Under the pieces are notes generated by a model that ran no database searches, was not told the DNA's origin, and saw only the letters and a program-made list of their open reading frames with translations. A program made the position numbers and the translations under genes. A DNA stretch of 64,000 nucleotides from Escherichia phage PNJ-9, in sequence record PQ100635.1; one strand, written 5' to 3'. Positions 29,343 to 37,668 of this stretch are shown here, piece after piece. The stretch's first letter is position 1, and each line of letters starts with the position of its first letter.

Positions 29343-29417
29343 GGCCCTGTAGCTCAATGGGAGAGCTGTCAGCTCATAACTGATAGGTAGCTGGATCGAA
29401 ACCAGCCAGGGTCACCA
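29343..29417 (+). tRNA. tRNA with CAT anticodon (Met, or lysidine-modified Ile)
   Basis: Hand-folded cloverleaf: acceptor GGCCCTG/CAGGGTC, D-arm GCTC-AATGGGA-GAGC, anticodon loop CTCATAA, T-arm GCTGG-ATCGAAA-CCAGC, 3' ACCA encoded. Confidence 0.75.
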
Positions 29418-29420
29418 ATC

Positions 29421-29497
<77 letters not shown>

Positions 29498-32442: not shown

Positions 32443-32464
32443 GGAGGACTCCGGTCCTCCTTTT
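32443..32464 (+). terminator. rho-independent terminator
   Basis: GGAGGAC-tccg-GTCCTCC followed by TTTT. Confidence 0.65.
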
Positions 32465-32483
32465 GGATAATAAAGGAGTTAAC

Positions 32484-33080
32484 ATGCGAAACCAAAATAA
32501 TGATATTGACTCAATGTTCGAAGAGTTCCGAGATAAGGTAAATCCACCTACGTCTTTAGTTGATTCATTACGATATGTTGCAACTGGACGTAAATGGTAC
32601 TGGTCGTCTTCTTATGAGACAACTGAATATGCAAATAACCGAAAATCTTTATTAGCCCCAGGTATTATGATTCATGATATCGGAGCTATTGCTAAACTAG
32701 TTGCAGACCATGATATTAGATTCACTGATTTCGTTGCTCCTACGTGGTCTGTTTGTTGTTTAAACACTGAATGGGAATATATCAGCGAACGCTCTGAAGA
32801 TTATTATGGTTTTAGAGACAAGCTTTTAAGGTCTAACATGTTTTATATTGATACAGAAGTTCTGGTCAATAATAAAAAATATTACTTTACGTTAATCGTC
32901 GATTCTGAAACTATGTATGAAGGCAAGCCTTTGCTTAAAAGAGTTGATGCTTTAAGTGCTATTGATGCGCTTTATGAAACTATGGTTGTTAGTCCTAATT
33001 TCACTAACAATTTAATCCTTGAGCAATTTATTATGGAATGTAGAGAATATGTCAAAGCCAACCCTATACATGCCAAGTAA
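32484..33080 (+). CDS. hypothetical early protein
   Basis: 198 aa from ATG 32484 (SD AAAGGAG; ORF track starts at TTG 32463). Confidence 0.5.
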   Translation: MRNQNNDIDSMFEEFRDKVNPPTSLVDSLRYVATGRKWYWSSSYETTEYANNRKSLLAPGIMIHDIGAIAKLVADHDIRFTDFVAPTWSVCCLNTEWEYISERSEDYYGFRDKLLRSNMFYIDTEVLVNNKKYYFTLIVDSETMYEGKPLLKRVDALSAIDALYETMVVSPNFTNNLILEQFIMECREYVKANPIHAK

Positions 33081-33444
33081 GCCCTGGGCGTATGAATACA
33101 AGCGTAAATTAATCCCAAATGAAGTACTATTTGGCCCTATTTTAGCTTTAGCGTTTTTAATCTTTATGATTATAGGAGCTATTTTAGATTCCAATAAAGT
33201 TATATCGTCTGATGCAGTGTTTTTACTTATTATACCCGGGTCGTTTATTGTACCATTTTTATTAATGCCTATTAACTGGGCAGGATATTGGTACCAAGGC
33301 CGTCATCACAGAGCTCGAGTTCGTGAGTGGAAAGTTCAGTGCGCAAAAGCCCAAGCTCAATATGATGAAGCTGTTAAAAAGTATGAATATGAAGAAGCTA
33401 TAGAATTCGTTAAGGAAATAAGATGCAAAAGCCTCAACTCTTAA
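33049..33444 (+). CDS. 2-TM membrane protein, FIKECR-tail family member 1
   Basis: Two hydrophobic helices, then a helical tail ending EEAIEFVKEIRCK; start at internal ATG 33049 is uncertain. Confidence 0.5.
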   Translation: MSKPTLYMPSKPWAYEYKRKLIPNEVLFGPILALAFLIFMIIGAILDSNKVISSDAVFLLIIPGSFIVPFLLMPINWAGYWYQGRHHRARVREWKVQCAKAQAQYDEAVKKYEYEEAIEFVKEIRCKSLNS

Positions 33445-33782
33445 CCGTATGGCCGTCTCTTGGTGAGAACATTCTAATTTTTATTATGAGTATTGGCATG
33501 GGATTTGCCTTTGGATTAGTTGGATTTCTTATTGACGGAGTTGTGTTAGGATTTATAGGGAATACAGGTGGATTCACAGACCAATGGCAGGACCTAAGAT
33601 ACACCCAAGCTTTTGCATCTATCGCATCATTTTGTACCGTAGTCTATTTTTACTACGATTTTATAAACCATAACAAGAAAAATAAAAAGGTTTACGCTTC
33701 TCAAATGATTAGTTATAATGAACTCCTAGCTAGACGTGAAAATGAAACAATAGAAAACTTTATTAAGGAATGTAGAAAATGA
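33423..33782 (+). CDS. 2-TM membrane protein, FIKECR-tail family member 2
   Basis: 119-aa ORF with two TM helices and C-terminal ETIENFIKECRK; overlaps both neighbours. Confidence 0.55.
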   Translation: MQKPQLLTVWPSLGENILIFIMSIGMGFAFGLVGFLIDGVVLGFIGNTGGFTDQWQDLRYTQAFASIASFCTVVYFYYDFINHNKKNKKVYASQMISYNELLARRENETIENFIKECRK

Positions 33783-34084
33783 GTAAGATTATTGAAATTA
33801 AAGTACCAGAGTTTAATGATGCCAAATCCGCTTCAGATGCAATTTATAAACTTCTGAATCAAGCTGAACGCATCGAAGAAGAAGCAACAAAGATCGCAGA
33901 CCAATATGCTGTATCATTTTCTGTAGGTGATTATGGTAGCGGTCGTACTTATTATCCTAAGGGTGAAATTGTATCCCAGTGGATGAAAGATGAAATTGAA
34001 AATAATGGTGGTGATGTTAAACGTGAAGGTAATGGTTACGTTATTACTGAAGGTGCTTGGGTTTCTTCTTCTGCGATGTGCTAA
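33779..34084 (+). CDS. small protein, W-SSS-C tail family member 1
   Basis: 101-aa ORF ending GAWVSSSAMC; N-terminal amphipathic helix; overlapping ATGA start. Confidence 0.55.
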   Translation: MSKIIEIKVPEFNDAKSASDAIYKLLNQAERIEEEATKIADQYAVSFSVGDYGSGRTYYPKGEIVSQWMKDEIENNGGDVKREGNGYVITEGAWVSSSAMC

Positions 34085-34093
34085 GGAATCATT

Positions 34094-34366
34094 ATGTCTA
34101 AAGAACAAACCGAACTGGCTGAAGCCGTAGCAAAAATCTATGCAGCTATTGAGGCTGCCAAAGAAATTGCTGATAAACAAAACACAACATTCGACTTGTA
34201 TCCAGCTTATGGTATGGGTGGAACCTATCATTCACCCGGACAACTTAAAGCCGATCTTGAACGTTGTACAAAAAACGGCTATGCTGAATGGGCTGACGTT
34301 TACCAATACGACTACAACCTGAGCCTCGAAACTGGTGGTTGGATTGCATCTTCTCACACTTGCTAA
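34094..34366 (+). CDS. small protein, W-SSS-C tail family member 2
   Basis: 90-aa ORF ending GGWIASSHTC; shares the Y-G-x-G-x-T-Y-x-x-P-G core with member 1. Confidence 0.55.
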   Translation: MSKEQTELAEAVAKIYAAIEAAKEIADKQNTTFDLYPAYGMGGTYHSPGQLKADLERCTKNGYAEWADVYQYDYNLSLETGGWIASSHTC

Positions 34367-34375
34367 GGAAACCAT

Positions 34376-34573
34376 ATGTCTCGTGAATTAGATTGTGCTG
34401 TACGTACGGCAGTAGCTGCTCTGGAAAACCTGTTCCAAATTGCAACAGAAGAACGCGAAGAAGTTACATTGTGGATTGAAGATAACGCAGGTCTGAATCT
34501 CCAGGACGCGATCTCATTATCCAATAATAGCATTACTGTTCAAGGCTGGGTATCATCTAGTTATTCTTGCTAA
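34376..34573 (+). CDS. small protein, W-SSS-C tail family member 3
   Basis: 65-aa ORF ending QGWVSSSYSC. Confidence 0.5.
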   Translation: MSRELDCAVRTAVAALENLFQIATEEREEVTLWIEDNAGLNLQDAISLSNNSITVQGWVSSSYSC

Positions 34574-34577
34574 AACA

Positions 34578-34607
34578 GTTTACAACAAGATAGGGCTATG
34601 TTATAGT
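34578..34607 (+). promoter_or_regulatory. T4-type early promoter
   Basis: GTTTAC 34578-34583, 18-nt spacer, TATAGT 34602-34607; ATAGGGCTA/TAGTCCTAT imperfect inverted repeat. Confidence 0.55.
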
Positions 34608-34635
34608 AGTCCTATCAAATTAAATGGAGTCCACA

Positions 34636-34875
34636 ATGATTTATTACGAAAGTGTTGGAACTAAAGTGGTTGCTAAAACCATTACTCGTGAAAAGTTTGC
34701 AAAGATATTCGATATGCGTTATAAAAAATCTGAACACAAAGGCATCCGATTCGAAGATGCGCACTGTACAATTTGTCCTTATAATGAAGACATAAACGGT
34801 ACAATCGTTCCATTGGTAGAGGCTTCACATGACGACCTCTGGGATGAATATAATATCGCATGTCGCGAAATTTAA
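34636..34875 (+). CDS. hypothetical early protein with Cys/His cluster
   Basis: ATG 34636 (SD GGAG 6 nt upstream); contains HCTICPYNED; 79 aa. Confidence 0.45.
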   Translation: MIYYESVGTKVVAKTITREKFAKIFDMRYKKSEHKGIRFEDAHCTICPYNEDINGTIVPLVEASHDDLWDEYNIACREI

Positions 34876-34900: not shown

Positions 34901-35857
34901 ATGATGTTAGTTATTGGTTCTCGTGCACTTCACTATCACAGTCTTATTGATTCTAACGCTATCAAAAATAGTGACTGGGACTTTATTGCAGACCAAGGTT
35001 CTTGGAATGCATTCAAAAATCAAATGATGGGTGTATATGTTCATCAAGATAACCCTGATGTCCAAGTTTTCAAATGCTTCCATAATGGACGCGAAACTCA
35101 TTTTGAAGCATATATTGTTCCGGCAATCACTAATGTCCGTGAATTAGTCGGTGAACTCACTCCTGAAGATTTCACGTCTTCTTATGACCTTTTAAAATAC
35201 GCCAAGAAAAATTTGACTAAAGACCGTTTGAACGGGTTTTACTGGGCAACTCCTGAGATATGTCTTGCAATTAAAATGTCTCATCGTTTCAAGAAAAATA
35301 ATCCATTCTTTTTAAAGACTATGAACCATATTCAGTATCTTCGTGGTAAAGGTGTTACACTGAACGATGAACTTACTGAAATTATGCTGAAACGCCAGAA
35401 AGAAACTTTGAACTATGCTCACCCAGTTCTTGACACTTCTAAAAGTGCGTTCTTTAAAGATGACATCTATACATATGACCATGATACTATTCACGAAGCC
35501 ATTGCACTAACAGACCGTCCGGCTTATACGTTTTACATGAAAGACGGTTCTGAAGTCATGACCTCACGCGAGAAGTTCGAATCGTTACCAGAAATGGTCA
35601 AATTGGCCGGCGTATATGAAGAATCATGTGTACTAGCGTTAGAACGTTCTCAGATTCCTAATAACTTTGAAATTAACCCTGAAGCCAGTTTCATGATGGC
35701 ATTAGAAAAAGTCTGCACAAGCATCACCTCCGGTTGGTTCCGTGAGTTCGCTTGGGAAAATTATAGCAAAGTAGTAAGTATGTATCAAAGCTTAGGACAC
35801 GACGATTACGTCAAGCGTTTCAAACAAAATTTTCATATGGTAAAACCTTTCAAATAA
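34901..35857 (+). CDS. hypothetical protein, weak nucleotidyltransferase-like N-terminal signature
   Basis: 318-aa ORF; N-terminus VIGSRALHYHSLIDSNAIKNSDWDFIAD (G-S ... D-x-D, but spacing longer than canonical). Confidence 0.55.
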   Translation: MMLVIGSRALHYHSLIDSNAIKNSDWDFIADQGSWNAFKNQMMGVYVHQDNPDVQVFKCFHNGRETHFEAYIVPAITNVRELVGELTPEDFTSSYDLLKYAKKNLTKDRLNGFYWATPEICLAIKMSHRFKKNNPFFLKTMNHIQYLRGKGVTLNDELTEIMLKRQKETLNYAHPVLDTSKSAFFKDDIYTYDHDTIHEAIALTDRPAYTFYMKDGSEVMTSREKFESLPEMVKLAGVYEESCVLALERSQIPNNFEINPEASFMMALEKVCTSITSGWFREFAWENYSKVVSMYQSLGHDDYVKRFKQNFHMVKPFK

Positions 35858-36195: not shown

Positions 36196-36501
36196 ATGAA
36201 ATTAACAGAAACCAACCGAATTGGTCTTTTAACAATACTTGCATCACCTTTTTACGCAGCCCTTTCTGTTGCAGTATTACAAAAGGCTTACGATATGGAT
36301 GGTGTTCCTGGTTTTATATTCTTATCGCCGTTTTTGCTATTCGTTGGAGCATTGTTATTATATGCCACGACTGGTTTCGACCATAATGTCTGGGTCAATT
36401 ATAAATGTAAATTGTCTGAAGAAGAACACGCAGAAGCTCGTAAAAAAGCTATTGAATCTACCAATCTAGAAAATTTCATTAAAGAATGTCGAGGAAAATA
36501 A
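36196..36501 (+). CDS. 2-TM membrane protein, FIKECR-tail family member 3
   Basis: 101-aa ORF with two TM helices and C-terminal ESTNLENFIKECRGK. Confidence 0.55.
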   Translation: MKLTETNRIGLLTILASPFYAALSVAVLQKAYDMDGVPGFIFLSPFLLFVGALLLYATTGFDHNVWVNYKCKLSEEEHAEARKKAIESTNLENFIKECRGK

Positions 36502-36502
36502 T

Positions 36503-37189
36503 ATGAATAGTTCTAAAGTGTTTAATAGTCAAGCTCGTGCAGTAGGTGGTTTTGCCGGCGGTATTTCTAATGATAAAATCAAGAACGAGCCTATGTTCTT
36601 CAACTGTAGTTTAGAATTTGCTTATAATAATGGCGGTCCTATTACTCGCTCTTTCATTATGAACTTGCCGGATGATTGGAACACCGACCAGGTTGTATTT
36701 GATTCACGAGTCCACATGCTGATGCCTGGTTGGTATCCTGCTATTCCTGGATATCACCATGATGACGTACCACGCCCAGATATTCCAACAGGACAACATT
36801 TTATTACTGCAGGACAACCTGATTATGACAACCCTCGTTACCATTCTGAACATATTCTTGGTCTTGTTAACGCTGATGTGTGTCCTACTCATTTTGCAAC
36901 AGGAACTGCAGAGTTCAGTCAGATTCCTGATGGCGAACTTATCTATCGCCAGTGGCACAAAGAAGTCCTCGAAAAAATCGAAAAAGGCGAACTAGAGAAA
37001 TGGGAAGCTCCGGACCGTACTCTTCTTCAGTTTGATTGGCAAACATGGCACACTGGTTCTCGTGCAATTAGTAATGGATGGCGGTGGTTCGGACGTGTAT
37101 CTCGTAATACAGACCGAGTTAAAAAGATTACCAATGAAATTCGTGTCAACGCCCAAGTTTATCTGGAATTCCCTATGGAAGGCTGGTAA
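36503..37189 (+). CDS. hypothetical early protein
   Basis: 228-aa ORF, Trp/His-rich (GWRWFGRVSR); no recognisable motif. Confidence 0.55.
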   Translation: MNSSKVFNSQARAVGGFAGGISNDKIKNEPMFFNCSLEFAYNNGGPITRSFIMNLPDDWNTDQVVFDSRVHMLMPGWYPAIPGYHHDDVPRPDIPTGQHFITAGQPDYDNPRYHSEHILGLVNADVCPTHFATGTAEFSQIPDGELIYRQWHKEVLEKIEKGELEKWEAPDRTLLQFDWQTWHTGSRAISNGWRWFGRVSRNTDRVKKITNEIRVNAQVYLEFPMEGW

Positions 37190-37668
37190 TGATTAACAAT
37201 AATATAGACGATGGCAATGAAGGTATTTCATACTATTCAGTAGATTGGACAGGATGTCCATCCTACTTAGTGAAACATATTTGCCAAGAATTTAAAATCG
37301 ACCAGCCAGCAGGTATTATCGTGAACAGATACATTAATGGATATCAACCTATCGATGAAGTAATACGAACAACTCAAGCTGAGCTTGAAAAGTTTTTCAA
37401 TAAGTGCCAATGGATAACAGGATGGATTATATTTGTACCGTCAGTGTGGTTTTTTAGTACTAAGGTGAGTTCTTTCGGTTTTGTTGATATTATTGCTATC
37501 TTATTAGCATCTAGTATCATAAGTGTTGTTGGTGGCATCATTGGCGGCGGTACCGCCGCCATCATTATTAATCTTGTTAAAAGTAGTTTACAGGAACGTA
37601 AAGACAAGATAAAGGCCAAGAATAATGAAGTTGAACGTTTTATTACCGAATGCAGGAATTTGAGATGA
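37189..37668 (+). CDS. 2-TM membrane protein, FIKECR-tail family member 4
   Basis: 159-aa ORF with hydrophobic helices (Gly-rich IISVVGGIIGGGTAAIIINLV) and C-terminal NNEVERFITECRNLR. Confidence 0.55.
   Translation: MINNNIDDGNEGISYYSVDWTGCPSYLVKHICQEFKIDQPAGIIVNRYINGYQPIDEVIRTTQAELEKFFNKCQWITGWIIFVPSVWFFSTKVSSFGFVDIIAILLASSIISVVGGIIGGGTAAIIINLVKSSLQERKDKIKAKNNEVERFITECRNLR

Follow-up and report, generated by a model that had tools for sequence, protein, structure and literature searches.

Small phage proteins with a conserved C-terminal Trp-Ser-Ser-Cys tag and their linkage to a DUF7277/DUF7275 gene

The tail genes of Escherichia phage PNJ-9

Three consecutive genes for small proteins lie on the + strand of Escherichia phage PNJ-9 (sequence record PQ100635.1), within a stretch of 64,000 nucleotides (nt) that was analysed as a whole and is referred to below as the window. 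Gene 1 (33779–34084) encodes 101 residues ending in GAWVSSSAMC, gene 2 (34094–34366) encodes 90 residues ending in GGWIASSHTC, and gene 3 (34376–34573) encodes 65 residues ending in QGWVSSSYSC; these coordinates, lengths and endings, first given in an earlier note made from the sequence without database searches, were confirmed. Genes 1 and 2 match PHROG 899 (E = 2e-23 and 1.9e-18, respectively) and gene 3 matches PHROG 4882 (E = 1.1e-36). All three belong to a family, not described before and restricted to phages, whose small, acidic, cytoplasmic proteins have an invariant C-terminal tag, and the tagged genes stand, in an order kept across otherwise unrelated phage backbones, before a gene for a protein with the domains DUF7277 and DUF7275.

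The tails are W94-V-S-S-S-A-M-C101 in gene 1 (34058–34081, + strand), W83-I-A-S-S-H-T-C90 in gene 2 (34340–34363, +) and W58-V-S-S-S-Y-S-C65 in gene 3 (34547–34570, +). The earlier note had written them as W-x-SS-x-x-C; the conserved Trp/Ser/Cys end stands, but the conserved stretch is eight residues long, W-x-[S/A]-S-S-x-x-C. No further stop-to-stop open reading frame (ORF) of at least 40 residues, in any frame of the window, has such a C-terminus, and six of the 275 ORFs of at least 60 residues end in Cys; three adjacent matches are therefore far beyond chance. At the DNA level, the three tails are 70% identical and their serine codons differ (TCT / GCA-TCT / TCA-TCT-AGT), from which it follows that selection has acted on the protein and that the tails are not a DNA repeat. 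Pairwise comparison of the whole proteins by BLASTP gives weak matches (E ~1e-4) dominated by the tail. Gene 2 is the window member nearest to the family consensus (IAD...F.L..AYGMGGTY). Its core motif YGMGGTYHSP (34208–34237, +) corresponds to YGSGRTYYP in gene 1 (33932–33958, +), of which the Tyr and both Gly are near-invariant in the family; gene 3 lacks the YGxGG core. Of the shared core Y-G-x-G-x-T-Y-x-x-P-G proposed earlier, the part Y-G-x-G-x-T-Y holds but the proline is offset by one residue (YGSGRTYYPKG in gene 1, YGMGGTYHSPG in gene 2).

The genes are tightly packed. The start of gene 1 overlaps the stop of an upstream membrane-protein gene (ATGA), and the junction between genes 1 and 2 (34082–34093, +) consists of a TAA stop, a GGAA Shine-Dalgarno sequence and a 9-nt spacer. 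The layout between genes 2 and 3 (34364–34375) is identical, and related phages share the 9-nt junctions. It had been claimed that the heptamer TAAGGAA follows each of the three genes; this is so for genes 1 and 2 (34082–34088 and 34364–34370, 12 nt before the next ATG), but gene 3 is followed by TAAAACAG. Over the window as a whole, TAAGGAA shows no enrichment (17 occurrences against an expected 13), and it is read as a TAA stop joined to the Shine-Dalgarno sequence of the next gene because it also precedes, by 12–15 nt, the genes that start at 33423 and 33779.

AlphaFold2 gave confident models of the proteins of genes 1 and 2, with a predicted local distance difference test (pLDDT) score of 89.4 and 90.7, respectively, and these models back the N-terminal helices that had been proposed for both (rounded scores of 89 and 91). 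Each model has a long N-terminal helix, a hairpin with the YGxGG loop, a variable segment, a final G-W-x-S strand and a short helical turn leading to the Cys. For the family as a whole, the predicted architecture is an N-terminal helix, a YGMGGTYYP beta-hairpin, a variable acidic linker and the last strand. A fold search of BFVD returned uncharacterised members of the same family only, so the fold cannot be assigned to a known one by the tools used. The best structural matches, which are weak, are to antitoxins of the YefM/Phd type.

The tail family across phages

When 50,697 deposited phage genomes were searched by tblastn, relatives of gene 1 were found in 389 phage records, mostly of T4-like phages (of Escherichia, Aeromonas, Enterobacter, Klebsiella, Shigella, Serratia and Citrobacter). 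Word-indexed searches seeded by the individual ORFs retrieved close relatives only, and the wider family needed an exhaustive profile search, in which a profile of the three subfamilies was compared with 1.84 billion cluster representatives and gave 153 matches at E <= 1e-3. Among the 135 small matches (61–167 residues), 126 end exactly in W-x-[S/A/P/T]-S-S-x-x-C-COOH, the third position being Ser in 89, Ala in 24, Pro in 12 and Thr in one. Retention of the tail in homologues had been named beforehand as the check that could refute the proposal of a conserved tail, and the proposal withstood it, since W, S, S and C are invariant in these 126 sequences. Before the tail, Gly is preferred at positions -9 and -10, with acidic residues ahead of those; a few members have one extra residue beyond the Cys (...SST..C[NSR]).

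An alignment of 122 sequences has a mean column identity of 21%, and W, S, S and C are its only invariant columns. Near-invariant columns are a helix Ala and the Y-G-x-G of the core, of which the family consensus is YGMGGTYYP. The tag is also present in several subfamilies whose relation to the main family escapes BLAST, among them the gene 3 type and those ending in HAWCSSSMSC and ITWYNSSESC. The tag outlives the rest of the protein. The family is acidic (median isoelectric point (pI) 4.5), and 78 of the 126 members have no Cys besides the terminal one. The suggestion that the tail might bind metal is not borne out: most members have the terminal Cys only, and nothing specific speaks in its favour.

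There was no Pfam match for the three window proteins and no consistent Pfam family among the 122 members; comparison of the family with the PDB (by sequence and by profile), NCBIfam and PADLOC gave nothing. In the literature, we found no description of the tail family, of PHROG 899 or 4882, of DUF7277 or DUF7275, or of a link between the two gene families. The earlier statement that no described family matches is thus upheld, the sole catalogue entries being PHROGs without function. The profile search also returned giant proteins of 2,289–5,191 residues with 4–17 matching stretches each; these are repeat proteins of the cadherin type, with one match after another to the hairpin region, and were treated as spurious. 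These repeat proteins (P0058, P0060–P0062, P0081, P0134, P0147 and P0195) match through ...DDG.GNTY..., probably as an artefact of composition or repeats.

The arrays differ in size from phage to phage. Over 76 loci with strict tails, there is one copy in 31, two in 24, three in 11 and four in 10, and some metagenomic phages have five or six copies when variant tails are included. Proteins of the gene 3 type have 65 residues in phages of Escherichia, Enterobacter and Klebsiella alike, and a fourth subfamily, ending in GFWF[S/T/N]SSMSC, is found in phages of the Dhakavirus and Gaprivervirus types. In a profile-profile comparison, the gene 3 subfamily aligns with the gene 1 subfamily over the last 16 residues only (probability 37%, E = 3.5e-4). 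The earlier view is supported in so far as the three genes encode related small proteins in tandem and their Trp/Ser/Cys C-terminus is strongly conserved, but the idea that they are progressively truncated has to be given up: each gene is a separate orthologous subfamily, of stable length across phage genera, while the copy number varies from one to four or more. The array is a set of several long-lived subfamilies with a common C-terminal tag, and not one gene decaying stepwise.

The partner gene and its linkage to the array

Downstream of the array, on the same strand, the gene at 34901–35857 encodes 318 residues that comprise DUF7277 (PF23942, residues 2–101; 97.2 bits, E = 9e-28) and DUF7275 (PF23940, residues 120–305; 265.4 bits, E = 3.8e-79), both well above the cut-off of 27. 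Both domains are matched by all 33 aligned homologues of this partner protein. In the N-terminal domain (33–36 aligned homologues), there is an invariant G6-S7, a D25-x-D27 some 18 residues on, and, about 40 residues beyond that, a conserved Glu/Asp near residue 69 within a hydrophobic stretch. In the DUF7275 domain, the invariant residues are K125, H128, K139, H194-D195, H198, E240-E241 and E248-R249, and the H...HD...H arrangement could be HD-like. Nucleotidyltransferases of the pol-beta type are marked by hG[GS] ... D-x-[DE] ... and a third acidic residue on an alpha/beta core. Pfam DUF6036, a ‘nucleotidyltransferase of unknown function’, was matched weakly by one of the 33 homologues (E = 0.005). 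In GenBank, the partner is labelled ‘putative nucleotidyltransferase’ in one record and ‘DefenseFinder protein’ in another; the labels ‘major capsid protein’ and ‘prohead assembly scaffold protein’, also found on this gene, are evidently mis-annotations.

The partner is present in 734 of the phage records searched. Among 185,579 bacterial and archaeal species genomes it was found on four contigs only, all from metagenome-assembled genomes, three of which also carry tailed ORFs. The module is essentially confined to phages.

Attention was first drawn to the partner by two divergent tail proteins, that of Myxococcus phage Mx1 (P0074) and P0108, for which a DUF7277 + DUF7275 protein of about 305 residues is encoded none or one gene downstream. 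In a forward test, 80 viral loci were then fetched by the partner protein alone. Strict-tail ORFs, from one to four each, were found in 76 of the 80, and two of the four exceptions have variant tails (...WVQSSC and ...WDSSTC). Every strict-tail ORF lies upstream of the partner gene, on its strand and within about 2.5 kb; when both strands of the 80 loci were searched (5862 ORFs), the strict pattern had no match besides these. Clustering of same-strand ORFs by BLAST over 84 loci, likewise gathered through the partner alone, gave the partner in 84, the tail family in 78 and a separate cluster of the gene 3 type in 16. The next commonest neighbour was a family of 83-residue ORFs, in 30, and all others were in 26 or fewer. 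Tail-family copies in any position other than upstream were limited to one variant-tailed member just downstream of the partner gene in each of two loci (L104 and L105). When partner proteins were clustered at 60% identity, 23 of the 25 clusters had a tailed ORF upstream. In the reverse test, which started from divergent tail proteins, five contigs were informative (P0074, P0108, P0082, P0119 and P0163), and each of them has the partner gene none or one gene downstream; a sixth contig was too short to judge.

The module occurs in T4-like phages of Escherichia, Klebsiella, Enterobacter, Serratia, Aeromonas and Acinetobacter and in Pseudomonas phages. The backbones over which the linkage holds are T4-like phages of many hosts, rV5-like phages, contigs of about 355–390 kb (the size of jumbo phages), Mx1 and contigs binned with the candidate phyla radiation (CPR), and the other neighbours change from one to the next. 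The order, tagged genes followed by the DUF7277/DUF7275 gene, is fixed.

In the window, a member of the 83-residue family (34624–34875, +; PHROG 3723) lies between the array and the partner gene; it contains C-T-I-C and ends in ...YNIACREI. It may be a facultative third component, because its family is the second commonest neighbour.

Genomic setting and nearby features

The window is from a T4-like coliphage of the Mosigvirus type. The region of the array is 100% identical to that of Escherichia phage PNJ-6, and many Mosigvirus phages (e.g. JS09, ST0 and APCEc01) are 95–97% identical to the region around it. The array lies in a variable early region, with tRNA genes (29343–29497) on one side and the nudE and lysozyme genes on the other. 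In T4, the equivalent position holds e.2–e.8. Bases 1–80,000 of T4, which cover the syntenic region from e to the tRNA genes and most non-essential early genes, contain no homologue of the DUF7277/DUF7275 protein (best E ~1) and no tailed ORF; on the side of the tail family, the same bases gave a weak match to Tk.1 only, outside the tail. NrdC.11 of T4 (NC_000866, 55435–56445), which is annotated as a nucleotidyltransferase and has a G-S...D-V-D motif of its own, was considered and proved unrelated to DUF7277/DUF7275 by hidden Markov model (HMM). RB69 and many coliphages that are candidates for therapy carry the module, which is widespread despite the lack of a fold, Pfam, NCBIfam or literature match for the tail family; that the first 80 kb of T4 are without it may explain why it has escaped study.

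Two promoter-like sites flank the array. One, TTTACG-17-TATAAT, preceded by G (GTTTAC), is at 33691–33719 (+), 60 nt 5' of gene 1; the other, TTTACA-17-TATAGT, is TG-extended and is at 34579–34607 (+), in the gap after gene 3. Both are consensus matches only, and sites of this kind are no more numerous here than in shuffled sequences. GTTTAC...TATAAT and GTTTACA...TATAGT resemble the early promoter consensus of T4. If active, the two sites would make the tail array and the partner unit two early transcription units, and T4-early-type sites before both would be consistent with early expression and with a role in host takeover or counter-defence. The second site overlaps a stable hairpin at 34589–34616 (11 bp, -16 kcal/mol, z = -3.4 against shuffled sequences), which lies in the 50-nt gap after gene 3 and has no T-run behind it.

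A second C-terminal motif, E-x-F-I-x-[E/M/Q]-C-R, is found around the module, where it ends four or five otherwise different proteins, mostly small membrane proteins. In the window it is carried by the genes at 32463–33080, 33423–33782, 36196–36501 and 37189–37668 and, more weakly, by that at 33019–33444; it also occurs at two other loci (L047 and L119). The endings include ...EQFIMECREY..., ...ENFIKECRK, ...ENFIKECRGK and ...ERFITECRNLR. The motif is present in 20 of the 84 loci, all from enterobacterial T4-like phages, and is sometimes directly 5' of the partner gene. Its codons in the window (TTT ATT AAG GAA TGT AGA) overlap with the ribosome-binding site and the start of the gene that follows, and for this reason the motif may in part result from a conserved cassette for translation initiation. 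The membrane protein at 33019–33444 has a homologue, F27_0136 of phage F27 (locus L001), that is labelled ‘sulfurtransferase’ in one GenBank record; Pfam gives no support for this.

Possible functions of the tag

Several fast-diverging small genes adjoin one slowly evolving, enzyme-like gene, and because this is the usual layout of a substrate or carrier with its modifier, such a relation suggests itself here. The tag is read as an acceptor because its invariant residues include nucleophiles (Ser, Ser and Cys). Also in favour of this reading are the invariance of the tag and its survival where the rest of the protein has diverged, the linkage in both tests, the invariant residues of the partner, the near-confinement of the module to phages and the promoter-like sites before both units. 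The linkage to an enzyme-like gene, which the earlier note had not seen, lends indirect support to its suggestion that the tail may be a modification or recognition motif. On this basis, the tail proteins and the DUF7277/DUF7275 protein would form a two-component accessory module. The partner would be a two-domain enzyme with a nucleotidyltransferase head of the pol-beta type that recognises the tag, and the tag would offer its Ser hydroxyls and the thiol or carboxylate of its terminal Cys for covalent modification. The one to six paralogues per phage would then provide a choice of substrates or carriers, distinguished from each other by their N-terminal parts; the module, probably expressed early, may serve host takeover or counter-defence. 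The family, the invariance of the tag and the gene linkage are established; the fold and chemistry of the enzyme, its contact with the tag, the modification and the biological role are all matters that we infer. That the tag is a docking or acceptor site of the DUF7277/DUF7275 enzyme for covalent modification, most plausibly nucleotidylylation, is a tentative proposal, the likeliest of those considered, which we regard as quite possible rather than probable.

A number of observations count against this proposal. The reading of the G-S...D-x-D...E pattern as nucleotidyltransferase-like is unproven, the motif having been read by eye, and the partner gave no match in the PDB (by sequence or by profile), NCBIfam or PADLOC. 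The tag is modelled inside the fold, as the last strand and a short helix (pLDDT ~83–85), and not as a floppy end, which fits a structural role equally well. Tail variants of the forms WxSSxC, WxxSAxxC and WxGSxC exist, so that the spacing is not absolutely fixed, and the same arrays include a related subfamily that carries ...SGGCEWE[E/Q]SA... internally and, lacking a terminal Cys, has the ending ...YGWN[I/V/L]. Linkage of genes in phages can reflect co-regulation only. Finally, distant DUF7275 homologues (26–34% identity), in Gordonia and Mycobacterium phages, Vibrio phage K412 and DSS3_VP1, have no neighbouring tail gene, from which it follows that the enzyme can work in the absence of tail proteins; its primary substrate may differ.

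Members with variant tails or of the YGWN type are found at loci L060, L067, L074, L075 and L078–L084. Taken together, the altered tails and the subfamily without Cys indicate that the tag has tolerated variants, which could map its requirements. As to the distant phages, a conserved alternative small partner was sought downstream of their DUF7275 genes and no similarity was found; nor was the match significant (E = 0.06) when the 228-residue ORF at 36503 in the window was considered as a homologue of the gene 5' of the DSS3_VP1 partner. The tail-less homologues (in Gordonia phage Toniann, L109; DSS3_VP1, L110; Vibrio phage K412, L111; and L121) lie near tRNA clusters, genes for an RNA ligase and a phosphoesterase, or genes for a nicotinamide phosphoribosyltransferase and Prs. 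The copy in the window is about 5.4 kb from tRNA genes. These settings are hints of a possible ancestral activity directed at RNA or nucleotides.

Alternatively, the tail proteins might be non-covalent regulators, inhibitors or specificity adaptors of the enzyme, in the manner of an antitoxin or pseudosubstrate, such that the tail enters or covers the active site and the paralogues tune or redirect it; the interface would be that of the proposal above. The weak matches to antitoxin-like folds are in keeping with this, as is the existence of enzymes without tail partners. We consider such regulation unlikely, although it is an alternative to be taken seriously.

It has also to be considered that the tail proteins act alone, for instance by serving as decoys against defence systems, by sponging up ligands or by inhibiting proteins of the host, in which case the tail would be a structural cap or oligomerisation element and the adjacency of the two gene families would reflect shared early regulation or joint inheritance. 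The modelled tail, built into a compact domain as a strand and a helix, would suit this, and the near-invariant YGxGG loop and the tail could jointly line a ligand pocket. Multi-copy, fast-diverging arrays in hyperplastic early regions are typical of phage counter-defence genes, and the arrays of small acidic proteins described here, in a hyperplastic early region, conform to that type; the occurrence of the enzyme without tail proteins in distant phages points the same way. However, the linkage survives very different phage backbones while other neighbours change, with the downstream copies at L104 and L105 as sole exceptions to a fixed order and strand. The tail persists where the rest of the protein cannot be aligned, which is hard to explain by stability of the fold alone, and Pfam, PHROGs and BFVD showed no likeness to any known family of sponges or inhibitors. 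Independent action is distinctly unlikely.

The proposal of covalent modification can be taken further. The DUF7277/DUF7275 protein may be a writer, or possibly both writer and eraser, of a novel covalent modification on the W-x-x-S-S-x-x-C tag of folded carriers, the candidates being nucleotidylylation of Ser or Cys, or activation and elimination at Ser followed by capture by the terminal Cys to give a C-terminal ring like that of lanthionine or aminovinyl-cysteine (AviCys). Variable small proteins would so become modified effectors, for use by large lytic phages against their hosts. In this extended form the idea is speculative and its probability low. If it were true, both the chemistry of protein tagging and the class of phage accessory system would be new.

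A further suggestion is that the tail is a short linear motif for a machine of the host, be it a C-terminal degron, a ligand of a protease or PDZ-type domain, or a mimic of a host C-terminus or of the terminal Cys of phosphopantothenoylcysteine. C-terminal peptides are recognised by proteases and by the decarboxylases CoaC and EpiD of the homo-oligomeric flavin-containing Cys decarboxylase (HFCD) type, and the motif does form the very end of the protein, leaving a free carboxylate, and does not vary from host to host. Yet the tail is predicted to be structured and not extended; with enterobacteria at one end of the host range and Myxococcus and candidate-phyla bacteria at the other, only a universal target would do; and the linkage to the enzyme gene is left unexplained. 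The substrate rule of EpiD calls for hydrophobic residues, which the x-x-C of the tail, with polar x, misfits. A host motif of this kind is improbable.

Chance resemblance, or a repeat at the DNA level such as a recombination or regulatory cassette, might be imagined from the likeness of the two junctions (TGC-TAA-GGAA, 9 nt, ATG), but it is refuted by the limited identity and differing serine codons of the tail DNA, by the invariance of the motif in ~126 clusters that are <50% identical to each other, and by the lack of any opposite-strand match among the 5862 ORFs.

Comparison with known systems

The window proteins are clear members of PHROG 899 or 4882 and of DUF7277/DUF7275, which are catalogue entries without a function, a description of the motif or a stated link. 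Among characterised systems, those nearest by function are pairs of an antitoxin with a nucleotidyltransferase, precursor arrays of modified peptides with a maturase, CitX and MdcG with their carriers, and GlnD with PII. Sulfur carriers of the ThiS/MoaD type and ubiquitin-like proteins have a beta-grasp fold and a C-terminal Gly-Gly, which the tail proteins lack. The anti-defence families Tad1, Tad2, Acb2 and the like gave no match in Pfam or PHROGs, and in BFVD the tail proteins matched members of their own family only. Type II antitoxins of the Phd/YefM/RelB type and the nucleotidyltransferase toxin systems MenAT and AbiE share with the module the encoding of a small acidic protein upstream of a larger, conserved, nucleotidyltransferase-like protein.

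Precursor arrays of ribosomally synthesized and post-translationally modified peptides (RiPPs) also consist of divergent small genes beside one conserved enzyme gene. The AviCys ring of epidermin is formed from S-x-x-C at the C-terminus of the peptide, and the spacing of Ser at -4 and Cys at -1 in the tail is the same. Unlike leader-core peptides, the tail proteins are predicted to be folded domains (pLDDT ~90), and it is their ‘core’ that is conserved and the rest that varies, which is the reverse of RiPPs. No LanB, LanM, LanKC, LanC or LanD/HFCD domain was found by Pfam in the neighbours in the window or in the recurrent neighbour families, so that the module does not belong with the lanthipeptides.

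CitX and MdcG are nucleotidyl-type transferases that place a nucleotide-derived prosthetic group on a Ser of a small acidic carrier, CitD or MdcC, encoded in the same operon. Here there are no Pfam matches to CitD, MdcC, CitX or MdcG and no CitG-like precursor enzyme in the neighbourhood; moreover, the acceptor Ser of CitD and MdcC is N-terminal, whereas the candidate Ser of the tail is C-terminal. GlnD, a uridylyltransferase and UMP-removing enzyme, combines a nucleotidyltransferase domain of the pol-beta type with a second catalytic domain and nucleotidylylates a hydroxyl residue of the small signalling protein PII (~100 residues). PII is a ferredoxin-like trimer that is modified on a loop Tyr; the tail proteins have no PDB match, and their candidate site is the C-terminal Ser-Ser-x-x-Cys. 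By family HMM and by characteristic fold, the tail proteins belong neither to PII nor to CitD–MdcC. GlnD and PII serve as a working analogy for the enzyme and its tail proteins, no relation in sequence or fold having been detected. Set beside these systems, the tail family and its pairing with DUF7277/DUF7275 are previously undescribed, and the module could bring to light a protein modification, or a mechanism of host takeover or counter-defence, that is new.

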